Virus genome (UHGV): UHGV-1775278
DNA length: 13,880 bases
Strand: one strand, 5' to 3'
DNA from: a virus
Shown: positions 1-13,250 of the stretch, piece by piece
How the letters are laid out: every line of letters begins with the position of its first letter
Numbering within the stretch: position 1 is the stretch's first letter
Program-made: the position numbers and the translations under genes
The notes under the pieces: model-generated
The model's database searches: none
Told to the model about the DNA's origin: nothing
What the model saw: the letters and a program-made list of their open reading frames with translations, nothing else

Positions 1-92
1 CAGCGGGGGTGCCTCCCCCTGGGGATATCCCCGGCCTTACCCCATTCTTTCAAGACACAATGCAAGGCCGCATCCGCATAGGTGCATTACCG

Positions 93-159
93 CAACATTA
101 AGGAGACTTAGGGCAAAAGGTAATCGCCACAAAAAAATCCCTATGCCTCCTTAATGTTG
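93..159. repeat. 13-bp perfect inverted repeat (CAACATTAAGGAG / CTCCTTAATGTTG) with 41-bp spacer
   Basis: Arms at 93-105 and 147-159 are exact reverse complements. Each arm contains an AAGGAG/CTCCTT core. A nested 5-bp inverted repeat TAGGG/CCCTA lies inside the spacer (109-113 and 139-143). Non-coding region with no ORF of 60 aa or more. Confidence 0.6.
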
Positions 160-365
160 AGGATGTGCATTGATGATGATTCGATGCGGCGAGTCCCGTT
201 ACTCTCTGCCGGACCATCATCAATGAACATCTTAAAAAGACCTTCCGTGGCTCAACATGTCTTGTTGTTTACTCCGTAAAGTGCTCTCTCTGAAACCACT
301 TTACGCACTAAACCTGCTGAACTTTGGCTTGCTCGGTGCCAAAGCGAGTCCCTGTATGCATGTAA

Positions 366-375
366 TTTTCTAACA
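366..375 (-). promoter_or_regulatory. Copy 1 of conserved element TTTTCTAACA (minus-strand reading TGTTAGAAAA)
   Basis: Exact 10-mer in the non-coding 1-533 region; one of five copies, all in the same orientation. Confidence 0.5.
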
Positions 376-389
376 CTTTAATTTGTTAT

Positions 390-465
390 TTGCTGGTGGG
401 CGAACAACAACCAATAAGTGACTATCAAGCCCAGCAAGCGAAATGTGGCAACGCTCCACCAGCAA
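390..465. repeat. Inverted pair of Chi octamers within a 10-bp inverted repeat (TTGCTGGTGG ... CCACCAGCAA)
   Basis: GCTGGTGG at 392-399 and its reverse complement CCACCAGC at 456-463. The flanking bases extend the match to a perfect 10-bp inverted repeat (390-399 and 456-465). Non-coding DNA. Confidence 0.6.
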
Positions 466-521
466 GGAAAATTCTAAGTTAAGTTACTCTCACAATCAAT
501 ATGTTCGTTTGATGAAATTAG

Positions 522-531
522 ATTTCTAACA
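522..531 (-). promoter_or_regulatory. Copy 2 of conserved element (ATTTCTAACA, 9 of 10 identical to the other copies)
   Basis: Begins 2 nt after the stop codon of the 406-aa gene. The flanks AAATTAGaTTTCTAACATATT closely match copy 3 (AAATTAGtTTTCTAACATATT). Confidence 0.5.
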
Positions 532-533
532 TA

Positions 534-1754
534 TTATTTCCCATAAAGATCTTCTACGCCCCCATTCTTCTTGTCCCATTCGTTAGCCCACACCCGGCAG
601 GCATCAATAATTTCTTGACGACGGTCGCCCTGCATAAAGGGGATGCTTTCATGAAAACTACTTGGGATACAGGCCACGCTGAATACGGTATCAAACGCAG
701 TCTGTTTGATAGCTTCCAACGTCTCTGGGCGCATTTTCAATTCATCGATCGGCGCATCCTTAGAGTCCATAATCCGGCGATGCAGGCGCGGGAAATCAGT
801 CTCCAGGTACGCCATAATTTTATCTGCCAGGCATTCGTCTATATCGGTATTCCAGTCCGTTTCGAAGCCGGGCAGGCGATAGTAAAGCGGCGTTCCCCAT
901 ACTGATGGGATCACATCCATCGTCAGCAGGCGGTTGGTTCTAATTTGTTGATGGTAATTAGCCGTCAACAGAGCTTCACCACGCTGACCAGTCTCCGCAA
1001 CCAGACCATGCGGGTACTCATGGATATAGGCAATAGCATCCACCCCGTCATACATGAGCGGGAATGTCTCTGGCCTTTGTCCCATACCACAAGCGCGGTT
1101 CAGATCATGACCAAGCTGTGAACACTCTCGTTTCAGCGTTTCAATAATGTTCTGCGCTGCTGCTAACTTTTTACGCAGTGTGACACCTTCGCCTTGATAC
1201 TTAATGCACTGCTGATTCAGCTCTGTTAAACGCTCTTTTAGTTCCCGACGCTCTCTTTTCAGCGCACGGTTATCCTTCTCCGCAACATCCAGTCGTTTTG
1301 ACAGGCTGGCTGGATAGTCTTTTTTGTAACGACTCAAATCGGCTTCTGCGGATTTGCGCAGTGTGTTTGCCTGTTCAAGACGCGCTTCCAGATTGCCGAT
1401 CTCACTACGCATACTCGCGGCAAATTGATTAACAGCATCGCCAAGACTTTCAACTGTCGCTGATACGCCTGTGACTCGTGAAAAACGGAGCAAGCCATCA
1501 TTAACAGCTTGTTGATATTCCTCAAACTGATCCACCAGCTTGTTGTAATCAACCGTCCCTTCCTCAAGTAGCTGGTTGATCTCCGCGACCAGGTTATCAG
1601 TCGTGGCAATGACGCTCTCATGTAACCGTCTGGACAGGTCATCCCCCGGATTCCGCTTTTGAATAAGGGCGATCTGTGTCCGCAGCGTTTCAATCGCGGC
1701 TGAGATGATTTCCAGATTAGAAGTATCAGTTTGTTGACTCATTGCAGTTCCCAT
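534..1754 (-). CDS. Hypothetical protein, N-terminal coiled-coil plus C-terminal globular domain (406 aa)
   Basis: Long uninterrupted minus-strand ORF. The N-terminal ~200 aa is charged and Leu-rich with heptad-like spacing (e.g. LEARLEQANTLRKSAEADL, RERRELKERLTELNQQ); the C-terminal ~200 aa is non-repetitive. A second in-frame ATG at 1742 has GGGA about 6 nt upstream, so the true start may be 1742. Element copy 3 and the terminator of the upstream operon lie just 5' of it. No family recognised. Confidence 0.7.
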   Translation of the reverse strand: MGTAMSQQTDTSNLEIISAAIETLRTQIALIQKRNPGDDLSRRLHESVIATTDNLVAEINQLLEEGTVDYNKLVDQFEEYQQAVNDGLLRFSRVTGVSATVESLGDAVNQFAASMRSEIGNLEARLEQANTLRKSAEADLSRYKKDYPASLSKRLDVAEKDNRALKRERRELKERLTELNQQCIKYQGEGVTLRKKLAAAQNIIETLKRECSQLGHDLNRACGMGQRPETFPLMYDGVDAIAYIHEYPHGLVAETGQRGEALLTANYHQQIRTNRLLTMDVIPSVWGTPLYYRLPGFETDWNTDIDECLADKIMAYLETDFPRLHRRIMDSKDAPIDELKMRPETLEAIKQTAFDTVFSVACIPSSFHESIPFMQGDRRQEIIDACRVWANEWDKKNGGVEDLYGK

Positions 1755-3701: not shown

Positions 3702-3719
3702 CGGCCCCGGTTGGGGCCG
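3702..3719 (-). other. GC-rich hairpin (CGGCCCC ggtt GGGGCCG) between a Shine-Dalgarno sequence and the start codon of the 144-aa gene
   Basis: 7-bp perfect GC stem with 4-nt loop. On the minus strand the order is TAA (giant ORF stop), cagat, AAGGAG, hairpin, aatttga, ATG. Confidence 0.55.
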
Positions 3720-3730
3720 CTCCTTATCTG

Positions 3731-6700
3731 TTAGGCCGCATCGGCGATTATTTTACGCAGTTCATCTACCGAGTAACGCGTAGATACCATCCATGCCGGA
3801 CGGTCAAAGTTCACATCAGCAACCGGGTTTGCTTCAAAATTCCAGAAACGCCCGCCAATCTTCTTAATCGCGTCCTTGGCGTTCCGTATTGTCGAGGAAC
3901 CGGGCTGATCGGCAATGAGATAAACGGCTCCCACATCTTCACTGACACTCCACCAGCGCCCGCGAACACGGGCTTTAGCGCGAATCGGCTTATCATTAAC
4001 CACAATGATATAGTCATCATTCGCCGCTTCATCAGCTCTGGCTTCAGCCACTGCCGCCTGCTCTTCTCTTTTGCTTTCAGCCTGCTCAAGCCTTTCCGCG
4101 ATCTCTGATTCAGTGGCCCCGCCGTTTTTCAGCGATACATAGTCCTGCCACGTTGCCGATTTGAGCGCATCCGGCAACTCATTCACATAGTCGCCGTCTT
4201 TCAACTCACGGGCGCGACGGGTAGCCATTTCTACCAGGCGATTAACAGAAACAGCATCAGCAAAATCGTCCTTACTAATGTGTTTTTCATCAAATGCATT
4301 GATGACAGCCCCCACCTTAATCCACTGCGCTGCTGGCGAATCCAGAGGATTATCGGCCTGAACAATGGCTAATTTCGCTCCATCGACACCATTATTAGCC
4401 AGCTGCTCCAATGCCGACCAGCCATCGGCATCGCTGAGTGATTTATATTGCTCAAACAATGCATCGCGCCAGGCCACCAGCGCAGCTCGTGTTTTCTCAA
4501 TTTTCGCCGTAATTTTCGCGGCCTTCACCTGATTAAACATCCGTTCAATGTCATCAGTGTTGCTAAAGGCTTTCATCCTGCCCTGGAATAAACGGTATGC
4601 CACCACGGTCTTCCAGAAAGATTCCAGCCCTTCTCCGGACGGTTTACGGAACAGGCTAAGAATATCTTCAGAAGTAACTTTATTAAGTGAGCGACTGGAC
4701 AAACCACGCCCTGCCATCCAGTTTTCAAACTCCTGGGAAACATCATCCATCGTGGCCTGTGCCCCCCATGCCTGCATTCCCTGGATGTAATCATATCCAT
4801 ACAATGCCTGGAGGAATCCCTCGCCGTCCACGACATTCAGCGGGTTATCACTGGCTTGTATTTTTGCCACTTCACGCTTCAGCGCCTCATCGTTGCCATC
4901 AGGGTAAATCCACCGCTCAGGCGCTATATCCGATGCTCGCCCGATTTTTTGACCTATTACGCCATCATAAGCCGATGACAGTGCAATCTGACCATCATCG
5001 GTGCGATAAGCCCAGTATTTAATAGCTGAACCACCGCCCCATACTCTACCAGGCTTCCCGGCAGTGACATTCATTACCCCATTGCGAATAGCATCATAGA
5101 ACTGATCGCGCGTAAGTGTTGTTGATAGCTGGTGGCATTGAACACCACGTGCAGCTGTTTCACGCGATTCTGCAACTCCCTCTTCAAAGGTTACCGATTC
5201 AATTATCAGGTTAAAGGGCAAAAATAATGCCGTACCCGGAGAACGAGAGTAACGACTAGCCACATCCAGCCAGGATATGCGGCACGTACACCCGCCCCTT
5301 TCCGCATCAATGGCGGTAACACGAACAATTGCTGTCGTATTGTGATTCTCATCGATGATCGCGCGATAATGGCTGTCCTTGTGCAACAAGATATTTTTCT
5401 CAGTGCGTACATACTCCTGTGGGTTCTGCAATACATCGGCATCAAGCTCCAGAACCCCGGCTTTAATCGCACGTTCCAGATCACCACGGGAACGTTTCAT
5501 AACGGTGTCAGCGTCTTTAGCTCTGGTGATCGCAAAGCGTAGCTCCCGCACACGTTTTCTGTAGTCTCGCAACTGTTCCAGAACATATTTCTGCCCGTTC
5601 CTGTTCGTCCCCGCTTTAATCAGGTCGTCAAGATTGCGCTGGTAATGCTCTACCTGCTCCATCGCGCTTTTCAGTTCTGTCTCCATCATGCCGATATCTT
5701 TCCCGGCAGCATTCGCCGCTTTCAGGTAGTTATCGAGAGCATTATTGGCTTCGCGTAGGGCTTTCAGTTTCAGACGTTCTTCACGCTCTTGCGCCTGACG
5801 ACTCATGATTGCACGGCGTTCTTCCGGATTTGCCGCCAGCATAATGGCGCGTTCATCTGCGTCATCCGCATCACCATTGGCGATCTCTGACATGTCGGAG
5901 GTCATCACCATATTGATCCAGTCCTTCTTACGTTTCAGCGTATCCAGACGGAAGTCGTCGAATGTGCCTTTGCCACAATAGTAGTGAACATTGACCTTTT
6001 CTTGCGGTGAACCTACGCGCGCACCGCGCCCATTTCGTTGGTCGATACTGGCTGGTGTCCAGGGTAGTGTCAGGTGGTGGATATCGGTTGTCCCGATGTG
6101 CAGGTTAATACCTACTTCAGCCTTCTTGTTACAGATTATGATGCGCGTGCGACCTTCGTTATAGTCGGCGGCAATACCTTCCATGCCCTCAAGGCCAGCA
6201 TCATTTTTAGCTGAGAGATAATCCTCATATTGGGCAAGTTTGCTGTAGTAGGTTTCCCATGCACCTTCTTTGTATTCACCGTTTTTATTTGGCGTAGGTT
6301 CAGTAGGCTTATTCACCTTCTTCAGCTTGACGCCGCCAGCCTGGCTAACTGTCGTCGCATTGATAATGCCTATCTCCTGCTCCGGCATTTGCAGTGCACT
6401 GGCAATAATACGGCGCAGCTTCTGGTGCTGGGCTTTTTCATCAATGAAGACGATTTGTTTACCGTTCTTCAGACCTTCACGAAGGTTTTCGATCAGCGCG
6501 GCATACTTCGGCGGGATGGGGTGTGATACCTGCTGCATATCAATACCGGCAGCCGCAATGGCCTTCAGTATTTCAGCTTCCAGTTCAATGCCAGCACGTA
6601 TTTCAACATGCGACGGATGTTCGCTAAAGGTGGTCTTCACTACCTTGCTGGTACGCGTACTGACCAGCCCACCAGCGCCATCTTCTTCGGCCTCGTCTGC

Positions 6701-9700
6701 ATCATCTGCCACTTTACCGCCAGCTACTTTTGGCAGGGCATCAGCAATAGCTTTTACCTTGTCTGCAAGCTCAACGGGGAACTGGAATGTAATCGCACTG
6801 GCATACAGATCAGGATCTATAGCAACCTTATCCATGTCGCGGATGATGGAGAAGATGAAATCATCCGGTTTTTCGTTTGTGATATGCCCGTTTTCATCGA
6901 CCGTCAGCGCATCTTTACTACTTAACTCCTGTGCACGCTTACGAAGTTCTTCGTAAATGGCCTCTTGCTCTCCTGTCATCGGGATCTGCAAGGTATTCTC
7001 GACAATATCAGGGATTTTTACCGTCGCCCCGACGTCCGCAGCAGTCTTCAGAGTAGTCCAGCGATGGAAAATACCACGCAGACCATCCAGGTTCTGGAAG
7101 CCCACCAGCCCCTGCTTCTCTTCCACCTCACCGGAAATTTTCTGAACCTGAACTGTGGCTGTTTTACCGAACACGCGAACGAAATCATCCGGCGTAACAA
7201 TACCCATGCGCATCCACTCTTCCTGCGGAATGACAGTAGACAGCATGTTGAAAGCATCAATCGGGCTGTTCACCAGCGGTGTTGCCGTCAGCATAACCAC
7301 ACCACGCCCGTTGTTGCGTTTCATCATGTACGCAGCTTTTACAGCCATATCACGAGCCATTTTGGATACTGCCGGGTTAGGCAAATATGCCAGTTGCCCC
7401 GCTTCGCGCCCGGCGCTAAAGGAGTTGCGGTAGTTATGCCCTTCGTCGGCAATTACGCTATCGAAGTTCATATCCTCAAAGTACGGGATATTCTGCTTCT
7501 TCGTTGTACCGGTATTTGCGGCCTGGTCCTTAATCTTGTTCTTCTTCTGCGCGTCACGGTGTTTGCCAGATGCCAGGTCAAGACGCCCCATTTCCACAGC
7601 ATTAAAGACCGCTTGCTGTGAGTTTTCCTCAATGGTTTCTTCTCGTAGCGGGATAGACGCGAATTGCTCTTTTGTCATGATGACCGTTCGCCAATTTGAC
7701 GACGGGATCATGTTCATGCGCTGAACGATAACGGCGCTGGCGGACTCTTTCACAACATTTCTGGTAAGAGCCTGCCCGTTACTGTCGAGGCGTGGTTCGC
7801 CATTTTCATCAAGCACCGGCGCGGTCAGAATATTTCCGCTGTCATCACGAACTTCATCCAAACCGATAAACATCATATTAGCGAAGGCATCAGCACTGTA
7901 GAAACTCTGTGCCTCGTGATACCAGTTCTGATAAACCGCCTTCGGAACAACAATACACGTGCGTTTAGTGCGACCTGTTTCGAAGTTATACGCCTCAAGC
8001 GCAAGCGCGGTCGTGGTTTTACCCAGCCCGGTGCCAAATCCCATGATGCCGCGCCCATCTTCTGATAAGCGACGAACTTCTTCATTCTGATAAGTCAGAG
8101 GAATGCGCTTCCCACTAATCCCCTCCAGGCCAAGCGGTGCGTCAGAATGCGTAAACGGGATGAAGCCATTAAATGCGTCGTTATAGTCGCGGGCTATCTG
8201 ATCAGCCTGCGGGTGAGTGCGTAACCAGTCGTTGAAGCTAATTTCCAATTGAGCAATCTTATCCAGGTACTCGTTAGCGTTCTGCCCACGCGGTTTAATG
8301 CCGTTCAGGTAGTTTTCTAACTGGTTCAGGAAGCCGTCTTTATTGTTGGCCTTCTTGAACTCATTCCCGTTTTTGCCGTTTACGGTTCGTAGTTGATAGC
8401 CAGTAAATACCCCGTCCTTACCTTCGTAATCGTCCGGAGATACCAGAATGCCGTCCTCAACCTTAAGGTCGGGTTCTGTATACTTAAACTCGTCATAGCC
8501 CTGCTCTGCCAGGAACTCTTTTATCAAGCGGCGATCCAGCCAGCGGGCGTTCAGATTAACGGTGACTTTATTTAGTGGCGTGAAAATGCGTTTCTCTTCG
8601 ATTTTCGCCAACTGACGCTCAAAGTTCGCTTTCTGCTCACCTGTTGACGCATCACGCCAGCCCACCAGCAATGCTGTTTTGGTTGCAATATCGCCGCTGG
8701 TGGCGCGGTCCATCGGCAGCAGGCAGCCATACCCATCAATAGCGATATCATCAAATTTCGCCAGGTATTCCAGAGCAGCATCGTCGTCTCCTGGCAGTTC
8801 GCCAGCAAACGCCTCACGAAAATCGTCCAGTGTGATTGGATTAAGTGCCACGTCACTGAAAAGGTGGGTTACAACTTGTTCCGGGCGTGTAAAATCAATA
8901 CCGGCAGCACCATCCGTTACATCAAGTCGTCCAGCAAGGAGGTCAGAAGCAGAGCCGTCCTGTTTCACGTTGCCAGTGAAAGTCATCCAGTTTTTAGCGC
9001 CAGCTTCAGCAATCCCATTCAGCTTAATCGCGTGCGGCGGACCATACTTCGCAATTTCGGCTTCCGCCAGGCGCGCGGCATCAGCAAGTTCATCATCAAC
9101 ATTTTCCCCCAGATTACGCTTATCAAGCGCCTTGTTGATCAACTGCCCTATCAGTGCGCCGCGCATAACGCGTTCTCTGTCTTTTTCTCTCTGCTTGCCA
9201 GCAAAGCGAATCATTGCCGCTACTTCATCACTGATAACCGATGGATAGTCGGACGCGATCGCCGATATCTGGTCCCATGACAACGCCAGAATGCCATTTG
9301 TTGACTGAAACGCGATCTGCAGATCGCCAAACGTCGAAACACCATATCGGCTTACATCAAGCGCGGAGGATTTGGTTGTCGTGTCCTTGACCCATTTCAG
9401 GCCATCAAACTCATGCCAGATGCCGCCTACAAGGCGTTTATCGCCCACTTTCGCGCCCTGCCATGCCTGAGTAGTTACGCCGAGCAAATCCCAATTAATG
9501 CGGCTTTCAAAGCGGCGCGATAGAGCGGTTTTCATCGACTCATTGGATACACGACCGTCCTTTTTCACCACCAGGGTATTGCGGAAGCTGGTACGCTCCA
9601 TATCGCCGTAAACAAATCGCTTCCCTTCGGTTGTAAACCATTTTCCTTTGAGGAAGGTATCCCAAAGGACGTTTGCCGATTTGAGCGTCGAATCATCCGT

Positions 9701-13240: not shown

Positions 13241-13250
13241 TTTTCTAACA
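13241..13250 (-). promoter_or_regulatory. Copy 5 of conserved element TTTTCTAACA, with inverted partner TTAGAAA 12 bp away
   Basis: Lies in the intergenic region between the stop of the partial gene (13305) and the 140-aa ORF / Rha operon. TTAGAAA at 13223-13229 is the reverse complement of TTTCTAA at 13242-13248. Confidence 0.5.

Follow-up and report, generated by a model that had tools for sequence, protein, structure and literature searches.

A conserved stem-loop carrying two Chi octamers at the head of a probable C1-controlled leader in D6-like phage-plasmids

The viral genome UHGV-1775278, analysed here as a single 13.9-kb stretch (the window), aligns with Escherichia phage D6, a P1-related phage-plasmid, at 92% identity over 96% of its length, and by this match is itself a D6-like (P1-related) phage-plasmid. 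The minus strand carries almost all of its genes, which besides those in Table 1 comprise pmgR/pmgM-like genes, ulx, ant/icd/c4 and part of repL. The first 700 bases are 100% identical to several ~90-kb E. coli plasmids, are present in 122 PLSDB plasmids (Escherichia, Salmonella, Shigella, Enterobacter) and occur on plasmids of 99 complete E. coli genomes, with no chromosomal copy in these genomes. The element considered here is a stem-loop at positions 390-465, each arm of which contains the recombination octamer Chi. It sits in a 1.24-kb untranslated spacer that extends from the stop codon of the pmgS-like gene (534) to the first tRNA gene, ~700 bp past the left end of the window. As the pmgS-like gene and the tRNA genes are both on the minus strand, the spacer is co-directional with its neighbors.

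The two arms, TTGCTGGTGG (390-399) and CCACCAGCAA (456-465), are 10 nt long, 100% complementary and 56 nt apart, both by direct reading and with a repeat finder; in the fold, one bulged base is followed by three further pairs. Both arms match canonical Chi exactly (5'-GCTGGTGG-3'), and their arrow-to-arrow arrangement would in principle offer a correct Chi to RecBCD arriving from either side or from a break between them. An earlier note on this DNA had described this facing pair and placed it outside codons, and both observations hold. The only open reading frame (ORF) across the segment (31 aa, minus strand, 370-465) is broken by stop codons in two lineages of relatives, types C and D, and the differences between the window and D6 are mostly non-synonymous; a small protein at the hairpin is rejected on these grounds. 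The same note listed a third copy at 431-438. The sequence, CCAGCAAG, is present but is no Chi, having just CCAGC in common with the Chi complement. On the 3' side the stem is followed by AAAUAACAAAUU.

Table 1 Features of the stem-loop locus and of neighboring genes, with positions in the window.
Feature	Position	Strand	Remarks
Stem-loop, 76 nt	390-465	-	5' arm 465-456, 3' arm 399-390, extension 454-452/400-402, 56-nt loop
Chi octamer GCTGGTGG	392-399	+	Orientation for RecBCD moving right to left; 3' arm on the transcribed strand
Chi octamer GCTGGTGG	456-463	-	Orientation for RecBCD moving left to right; 5' arm of the hairpin
Most conserved loop motif TTGATAGTCACTT (plus strand AAGTGACTATCAA)	416-428	-	Identical in the window, D6, type C and L167
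CCAGCAAG, third copy of the earlier note	431-439	-	Only GCAAGC (minus strand GCTTGC) kept across lineages; no Chi
Predicted sigma-70 promoter	471-499	-	-35 TTGATT (499-494), 17 nt, -10 TAGAAT (476-471); 9/12 match
Operator-like 17-mer O1, TGTTAGAAATCTAATTT	515-531	-	Between the pmgS-like stop (3 bp away) and the -35 (15 bp away)
Operator-like 17-mer O2, TGTTAGAAAATTACATG	359-375	-	~90 nt downstream of the predicted start
Untranslated structured leader, continued	1-358	-	Runs ~250 nt past the left end to an intrinsic terminator (GCCCATCTTCGGGTGGGC-T run), then tRNAs
pmgS-like gene	534-1754	-	Stop codon adjoins O1; Chi-independent anchor for gathering relatives
darB-like gene, 2318 aa	3731-10687	-	
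c4 homologue	~12.8-13.15 kb		

Relatives of the locus were gathered through the PmgS-like protein in plasmids, IMG/VR and GTDB genomes, without reference to Chi. Upstream of the stem, the promoter pattern TTGATT-N17-TA[GAC]AAT recurs at a fixed offset in 26 of 26 D6-group loci, in three Enterobacter-type loci and in L128, while the sequence of the spacer varies. This conservation reaches as far as the Enterobacter hormaechei type, where PmgS identity is 47%. That the hexamers and their 17-nt spacing stay constant while the spacer sequence changes freely indicates a functional promoter. Transcription is predicted to start 7-8 nt past the -10 hexamer, at 463-464, which would be the second or third base of the stem; the distance from the -10 hexamer to the stem is kept at 5-8 nt in the D6 and Enterobacter lineages. 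At 25-30% PmgS identity, relatives of the Pantoea and Citrobacter groups still show a corresponding promoter; what comes after it there is an RNA of 60-95 nt that ends in an intrinsic terminator of its own.

Within the D6 group (four sequence types, with PmgS identity of 74% or more and local DNA identity as low as ~73%) both octamers are kept, except in L152, where one arm is mutated, in L128, which has a degenerate copy, and in one contig that ends before the segment. The L152 mutation, C to T in the 392-399 octamer, yields a G.U pair on the sense strand, as do single changes in D6v2 and CP085065, making three in total. In the Enterobacter type the corresponding site between the promoter and the operator-like repeat O2 is occupied by a perfect 12-bp repeat, TTGTCGGTGCTG/CAGCACCGACAA; its pairing register is shifted and it contains one Chi, the counterpart of the 456-463 octamer. 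In the more distant L167 (30% PmgS identity) the stem is TTTTGCTGGTCGT/ACGACCAGCAAAA, in which a G-C to C-G swap within the octamer abolishes both Chi. The loop of the L167 hairpin carries TTGATAGTCACTT, as in the window, and a covariance model trained only on D6-group sequences retrieves the L167 element at 25.5 bits.

At this position the relatives thus have a stem of 10-13 bp that is kept through compensatory changes. Across eight variants 97.5% of cells are paired and five of the ten pairs have changed on both sides, a result matched by none of 500 shuffles; the outermost pair covaries within the D6 group itself (UA/GC). The closing stem forms in the folds of all six lineages examined (z = -2.5 to -7.0). 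Judged by these comparisons, it is probably the hairpin that is conserved here rather than Chi as such. The earlier note had named conservation in relatives as a check on the Chi pair: the pair is kept across the D6 group, but distant relatives keep the hairpin with only one Chi (Enterobacter type) or none (L167). Neither hairpin element nor Chi pair was found at this position in P1, the Citrobacter group or the Pantoea group. A metagenome scan and one viral scan with the promoter and operator patterns listed chance matches and one ordinary D6-like locus, with no new lineage among the matches listed.

The interior of the hairpin behaves differently from its stem. The RNAalifold consensus contains the closing stem only, with no conserved structure inside the 56-nt loop. 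The loop does contain conserved sequence islands, GCTTGC and GATAGTCAC, in addition to the motif of Table 1, of which type D retains only GTCAC. At the apex of L167 there is a near-perfect 20-bp palindrome, GTAACTATC-TT-GATAGTCAC, one half of which is all that the D6 types retain. Two alternative pairings were rejected, as each is present in some types only: a local hairpin GUGGG/CCCAC, and pairing of the 3' arm with an internal copy of CUUGCUGG.

The window contains 13 Chi against 0.46 expected, and the remaining 11 all lie in the pmgS-like, darB-like and ant-like ORFs. In D6, Chi is the commonest octamer, with 53 copies against 2-7 expected under Markov models, 38 of them in the sense orientation of genes and mostly in the frame G-CTG-GTG-G. 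All relatives examined, L167 included, are Chi-rich (5-15 per 10 kb). P1 contains 50 Chi sites, again as its commonest octamer, and both its growth and its cyclisation depend on RecA and RecBCD (PMC12315714). The enrichment in D6 matches these published data, so Chi selection in the P1 family is real and already known. The present pair shares its octamer and its part in the genome-wide enrichment with the other Chi sites of P1-family genomes. Unlike the other D6 sites, however, its members are the only two non-coding copies and form hairpin arms whose pairing is kept in relatives that have lost Chi; Chi activity is predicted from the octamer itself.

Such abundance makes coincidence worth considering, namely that, in a genome so rich in Chi, two oppositely oriented copies ended up 64 bp apart by accident and have no function. 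About 0.5 opposite-orientation pairs less than 100 bp apart are expected per window and 1.45 per D6 genome at this Chi density, and two are observed in each, so proximity alone is not significant. The T or TT preceding Chi, which takes the repeat to 10 bp, is also frequent genome-wide. The pair is nevertheless notable beyond chance, not for its position but because it is kept in relatives and its stem shows compensatory changes. Different perfect inverted repeats of 12-13 bp occupy the homologous place in two other lineages, and by our estimate the probability of even one such repeat in a 510-nt search window is ~0.002. Moreover, where overall identity falls to 73% the segment is much better conserved than its flanks. 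We therefore consider coincidence extremely unlikely.

A second opposite pair in the window, 8662-8669 (-) and 8696-8703 (+), lies 34 bp apart and back to back within the darB-like gene, and is also present in D6. P1 has a different, 67-nt inverted Chi pair, TGCTGGTGGG...TCCACCAGCA, within the pmgV coding sequence (AF234172.1, 85870-85936), which is common to P1, P7, SJ46 and relatives and was found at 43 IMG/VR loci (e.g. L013, L014, L028). Short hairpins with Chi stems, such as TGCTGGTGGCG-13 nt-CGCCACCAGCA, occur in Pantoea-group relatives, at 2804-2840 in L135, L181 and L190 and at 6226-6256 in L134 and L176. The 2804-2840 hairpin is non-coding and lies directly upstream of an operator-like palindrome and a pmgS-like gene.

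The earlier note had proposed that the pair attenuates RecBCD entering from either side at a replication, packaging or recombination locus. This setting is not borne out; the locus appears instead to be the promoter-proximal leader of an early, repressor-controlled tRNA/tci operon. P1 pac, which lies in pacA and consists of clustered GATC-containing hexamers, belongs to the same genome family; in contrast, 340-540 contains no GATC. In D6, GATC is most densely clustered within pacA near its 5' part (3715-3885, five in 170 bp), ~5 kb from the hairpin, and by analogy with P1 the D6 pac site is likely to be in this cluster. A pac site at the hairpin is thus rejected, as is a replication origin, since repL and repA are annotated elsewhere.

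The pair could still be a dedicated two-way Chi gate, kept to turn the RecBCD nuclease into a recombinase from either side, or after a break between the sites, and so to protect or recombine the DNA. Both octamers are canonical and, apart from the L152 arm and the degenerate L128 copy, without variation in the D6 group; one Chi persists in the Enterobacter type in spite of its changed stem; the family is strongly Chi-enriched; cyclisation of P1 needs RecA and RecBCD (PMC12315714); and Pantoea-group relatives have other non-coding hairpins with Chi stems. L167, however, keeps the hairpin and its loop motif in a Chi-rich genome although a compensatory swap has removed both Chi, and P1 and the Citrobacter and Pantoea relatives have no pair at this position. 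Nor is there a sign of special Chi recruitment to non-coding DNA in D6, where only this pair, 2 of the 53 copies, is non-coding against 5.5 expected at even density (non-coding DNA being 10.5% of the genome). Opposite pairs at close range occur at about the chance rate, and nothing at the locus cuts or ends DNA. There is therefore probably no special, dedicated Chi device here, and we regard a gate of this kind as unlikely.

A broader version would be that Chi-dependent phage-plasmids deliberately use non-coding hairpin stems as two-way Chi carriers, one element providing two hotspots. On this view the leader hairpin would also serve as a RecBCD checkpoint in both directions beside the early tRNA operon, and the Chi-stem hairpins of the Pantoea group would be independent cases. 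We consider this general strategy distinctly improbable.

Promoter and hairpin are flanked by two direct repeats. The earlier note had listed them as two copies of TTTTCTAACA; repeats do flank the region, but they are exact over only 9 nt, TTTCTAACA (367-375 and 523-531), and the second copy is ATTTCTAACA, with A and not T as its first letter. On the minus strand the repeat reads TGTTAGAAAAyTAATTT, i.e. TGTTAGAAA(A/T)nTAATTT, and forms the 17-mers O1 and O2. The window contains five exact copies of the core, all on one strand. The other three read TTTCTAACA on the plus strand and TGTTAGAAAAnTAATTT on the minus strand: 1772-1780 is upstream of the pmgS-like gene, 2814-2822 of the pmgM-like gene and 13242-13250 of the c4-icd-ant module. 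The last of them directly precedes a -35-like TTGCTG, comparable to P1 Op51, which adjoins P2c4.

In the complete D6 genome the core TGTTAGAAA has 13 exact copies, 12 of which are intergenic as annotated and the thirteenth within the longer pmgM annotation of D6. One is 20 bp upstream of c1, others are next to ref and to cre, an inverted pair precedes hrdC-dmt, further copies lie upstream of c4-icd, pmgM and pmgS, and two belong to the present locus. In the P1 record, C1 operators are annotated at c4 (Op51, adjoining the -35), dmt (Op68), pmgL/26 (Op82) and ban (Op72ab). Beyond those annotated there, P1 has C1 operators at c1 (Op99) and ref (Op2). Going by their sequence and distribution, we interpret the flanking repeats as most probably C1 repressor operators of a D6 type. 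We describe them as D6-type rather than as a P1 sequence because only the 3' half (AAyTAATTT) resembles the P1 consensus ATTGCTCTAATAAATTT, giving a match of ~9/17. The divergence of the 5' half would be consistent with a repressor whose specificity differs.

O2 is present in every lineage whose hairpin lies between promoter and operator. The spacing between O1 and O2 is 140, 150, 156 or 163 bp, so that the phase is not constant, and repressor looping at a fixed helical phase is rejected. Our first idea for TGTTAGAAA, a box of Lpa-dependent late promoters, was given up because its copies are at c1, ref, c4 and hrdC-dmt, early or immunity positions at which P1 has C1 operators, and because the D6 late genes share a different box. 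Upstream of these late genes (R, mat, 23, prt, ddrB, pmgB, 7; L196/L197) there is a common element, AAATCACAN-N6-TAnnnT, a candidate late-promoter signature of D6 that is distinct from the P1 -22 boxes AAGTGACTT/AAATGACTA.

Those P1 boxes are resembled by a 9-mer in the hairpin loop, AAGTGACTA, followed by TCAA and then by GCCCAG rather than TAnnnT. A P1-type (Lpa-dependent) late promoter in the loop is rejected, as there is no -10 hexamer and 9-mers like AAGTGACTT occur at chance frequency in the window. The resemblance also bears on the possibility that the repeat acts as DNA, its interior motifs GCTTGC and GATAGTCAC forming a protein-binding site or the whole a cruciform, perhaps as part of the operator architecture or as the site of another phage regulator. 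An interior with sequence islands and no conserved RNA structure is consistent with such a role, as are its place between two operator copies and the L167 apex, a palindrome as expected for a dimeric DNA-binding protein. On the other hand, the D6 types retain only half of this palindrome, the operator spacing offers no constant phase for looping, the late-box-like 9-mer is neither followed by a -10 hexamer nor of the kind used by D6 late genes, and its frequency is that of chance. Single changes of the G.U type also suit RNA better than DNA. A DNA-level element is, in our view, very unlikely, and the hairpin probably acts as RNA.

The 76-nt length is that of a tRNA, but ARAGORN found no tRNA or tmRNA in the window and Rfam gave nothing at 390-465 even at E<=10; a tRNA-like or degenerate tRNA element is rejected on both counts. 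No intrinsic terminator was found in 1-800. A mobile element, such as a miniature inverted-repeat transposable element, is likewise rejected: the hairpin occurs once per replicon, in D6-like plasmids only and never in E. coli chromosomes, and the direct repeats do not adjoin the inverted repeat. The C4 antisense RNA of P1 and P7 (77 nt) is similar in length, closing stem and kind of phage. In contrast to C4 RNA, the hairpin has neither an Rfam match nor a complementary target, the D6 genome containing only matches to the loop motif with two mismatches, at about the chance number by our estimate, and the true c4 homologue lies elsewhere in the window.

The transcript predicted to begin at the hairpin would run into a long leader. 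After O2 there are ~620 nt more of structured non-coding sequence, and the leader as a whole (L006:2753-3470, minus strand) is ~720-820 nt long, non-coding and hairpin-rich, and ends at an intrinsic terminator. This terminator and the pre-tRNA leader sequence are common to the D6 family and P1. The P1 arrangement begins with Pban/Op72ab and a dicF-like region that closes with the terminator GCCCATCTTCGGGTGGGCG-T run; a ~450-nt leader, tRNA-Asn, tRNA-Thr, tciA-C, trnI and ban come next. In the D6 family the genes after the leader are tRNA-Arg or tRNA-Asn, tRNA-Thr, tRNA-Ser, tciA/tciB homologues and tRNA-Ile(CAT).

The locus thus corresponds, in the D6 family, to the start of the P1 ban operon. 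The downstream order (tRNAs, tciA/B homologues, CAT tRNA-Ile), the terminator and the pre-tRNA leader match, and both loci have a sigma-70 promoter with repressor-operator-like 17-mers whose 3' half resembles ATTGCTCTAATAAATTT. The two differ in that P1 Op72ab is one overlapping divalent operator, whereas here two single operators in direct orientation, 156 bp apart, flank promoter and hairpin. The P1 leader has no equivalent hairpin and no Chi, its length is ~180 nt compared with ~720 nt here, and no ban gene follows in D6.

Several features of the leader stand apart from the hairpin. Its core (window ~1-190) hardly varies, even in comparisons of lineages with 73% identity elsewhere, and RNAalifold predicts 176 pairs in the leader, 16 of them with compensatory changes; Rfam gave no match for it. 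A 13-bp perfect inverted repeat (window ~92-104/146-158; minus strand CAACATTAAGGAG/CTCCTTAATGTTG) buries a Shine-Dalgarno-like TAAGGAGG. In type C the same repeat has CAACGTTAAGGAG on both arms, a compensatory change, and the enclosed loop is wholly replaced. Types C and D (L002, L003, L004) keep a segment homologous to the P1 dicF-like region, GGCGGTAAGTATGGC...CAGGTTGACCATACGCCTAAGTG (alignment A8, columns 702-832), which is missing from the window-type and D6 leaders (L006, L001), and type D lacks another block of 125 nt. Because the types differ in these two blocks, the leader is a mosaic.

The tRNA genes beyond the leader are annotated on the plus strand in the D6 RefSeq record NC_050154.1 (three tRNAs, features 7145-7850), whereas ARAGORN (on D6 and on the plasmid identical to the window) and PGAP (NZ_CP047663) place the same tRNAs on the minus strand, in the direction of the flanking genes. 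A fourth tRNA in D6, with a CAT anticodon, is detected by ARAGORN and is unannotated in RefSeq. At the first position of the cluster, plasmids of the window type (L005:3218-3294) and of the CP091837 type (L003:1718-1794) have tRNA-Arg(TCT), and D6 (L001:3219-3294), CP085065 and P1 (L195:749-824) have tRNA-Asn(GTT). The acceptor, D and T arms of the two versions are near-identical and only the anticodon arm is replaced, which looks like a natural anticodon-arm swap.

Taken together, we favor, with modest confidence, the view that the stem-loop is the paired 5' end of a C1-repressed early leader transcript, probably protecting or defining that end, and that its Chi content is secondary or incidental. 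In the plasmid prophage, C1 repressor bound at O1 and O2 would keep the promoter silent. Upon infection or induction, host RNA polymerase would start at about 463-464, and the first 76 nt of the transcript would fold into the hairpin, leaving no free 5' tail. The hairpin may then shield the leader and tRNA precursor from 5'-end-dependent decay (RNase E, RppH), or serve as a processing mark. In duplex DNA the arms would also be two canonical Chi in a genome under family-wide Chi selection, most likely as a secondary or incidental property. A stem like that of L167, one mutation short of Chi, could easily be converted by a compensatory pair of changes into two Chi at once. Stabilizing stem-loops of the type found in the ompA 5' untranslated region offer a parallel, as here too the stem begins 0-2 nt from the predicted start. 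Unlike these, our hairpin encloses a very large region of 56 nt, and the L167 hairpin is internal to any transcript.

A number of observations weigh against this assignment. The start at 463-464 is a prediction, and in L167 the hairpin follows a small-RNA terminator and not a promoter, so that a strictly 5'-terminal role is not universal. Neither operator overlaps the promoter core, in contrast to P1 Op72. A loop with sequence motifs but without conserved secondary structure could equally be a protein-binding DNA site. The stem arms and register were chosen by us for each lineage, which means that pairing is partly by construction, and the argument from pairing therefore rests on positional homology for the Enterobacter type and on loop homology for L167. 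Finally, the octamers are invariant in the D6 group, with the exceptions given above, while the outer stem pair covaries; together with the one Chi of the Enterobacter type this is compatible with a degree of selection for Chi as such.

That P1-type genomes are rich in Chi and that C1 operators occur at early promoters is already established. The hairpin is an ordinary kind of element; no description of it was found in the literature other than the P1 and D6 genome papers. The reading as a RecBCD trap at a packaging or origin site is replaced by a testable map of a D6-like early control region, comprising a likely repressor operator, a conserved early promoter, a leader hairpin and a long structured leader before the phage tRNA genes, in phage-plasmids that are frequent in E. 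coli, Salmonella and Shigella. The L167-type compensatory swap, which keeps the stem and destroys both Chi, is a natural experiment that separates Chi from stem, and could be used to ask whether single Chi sites matter in P1-family phages.

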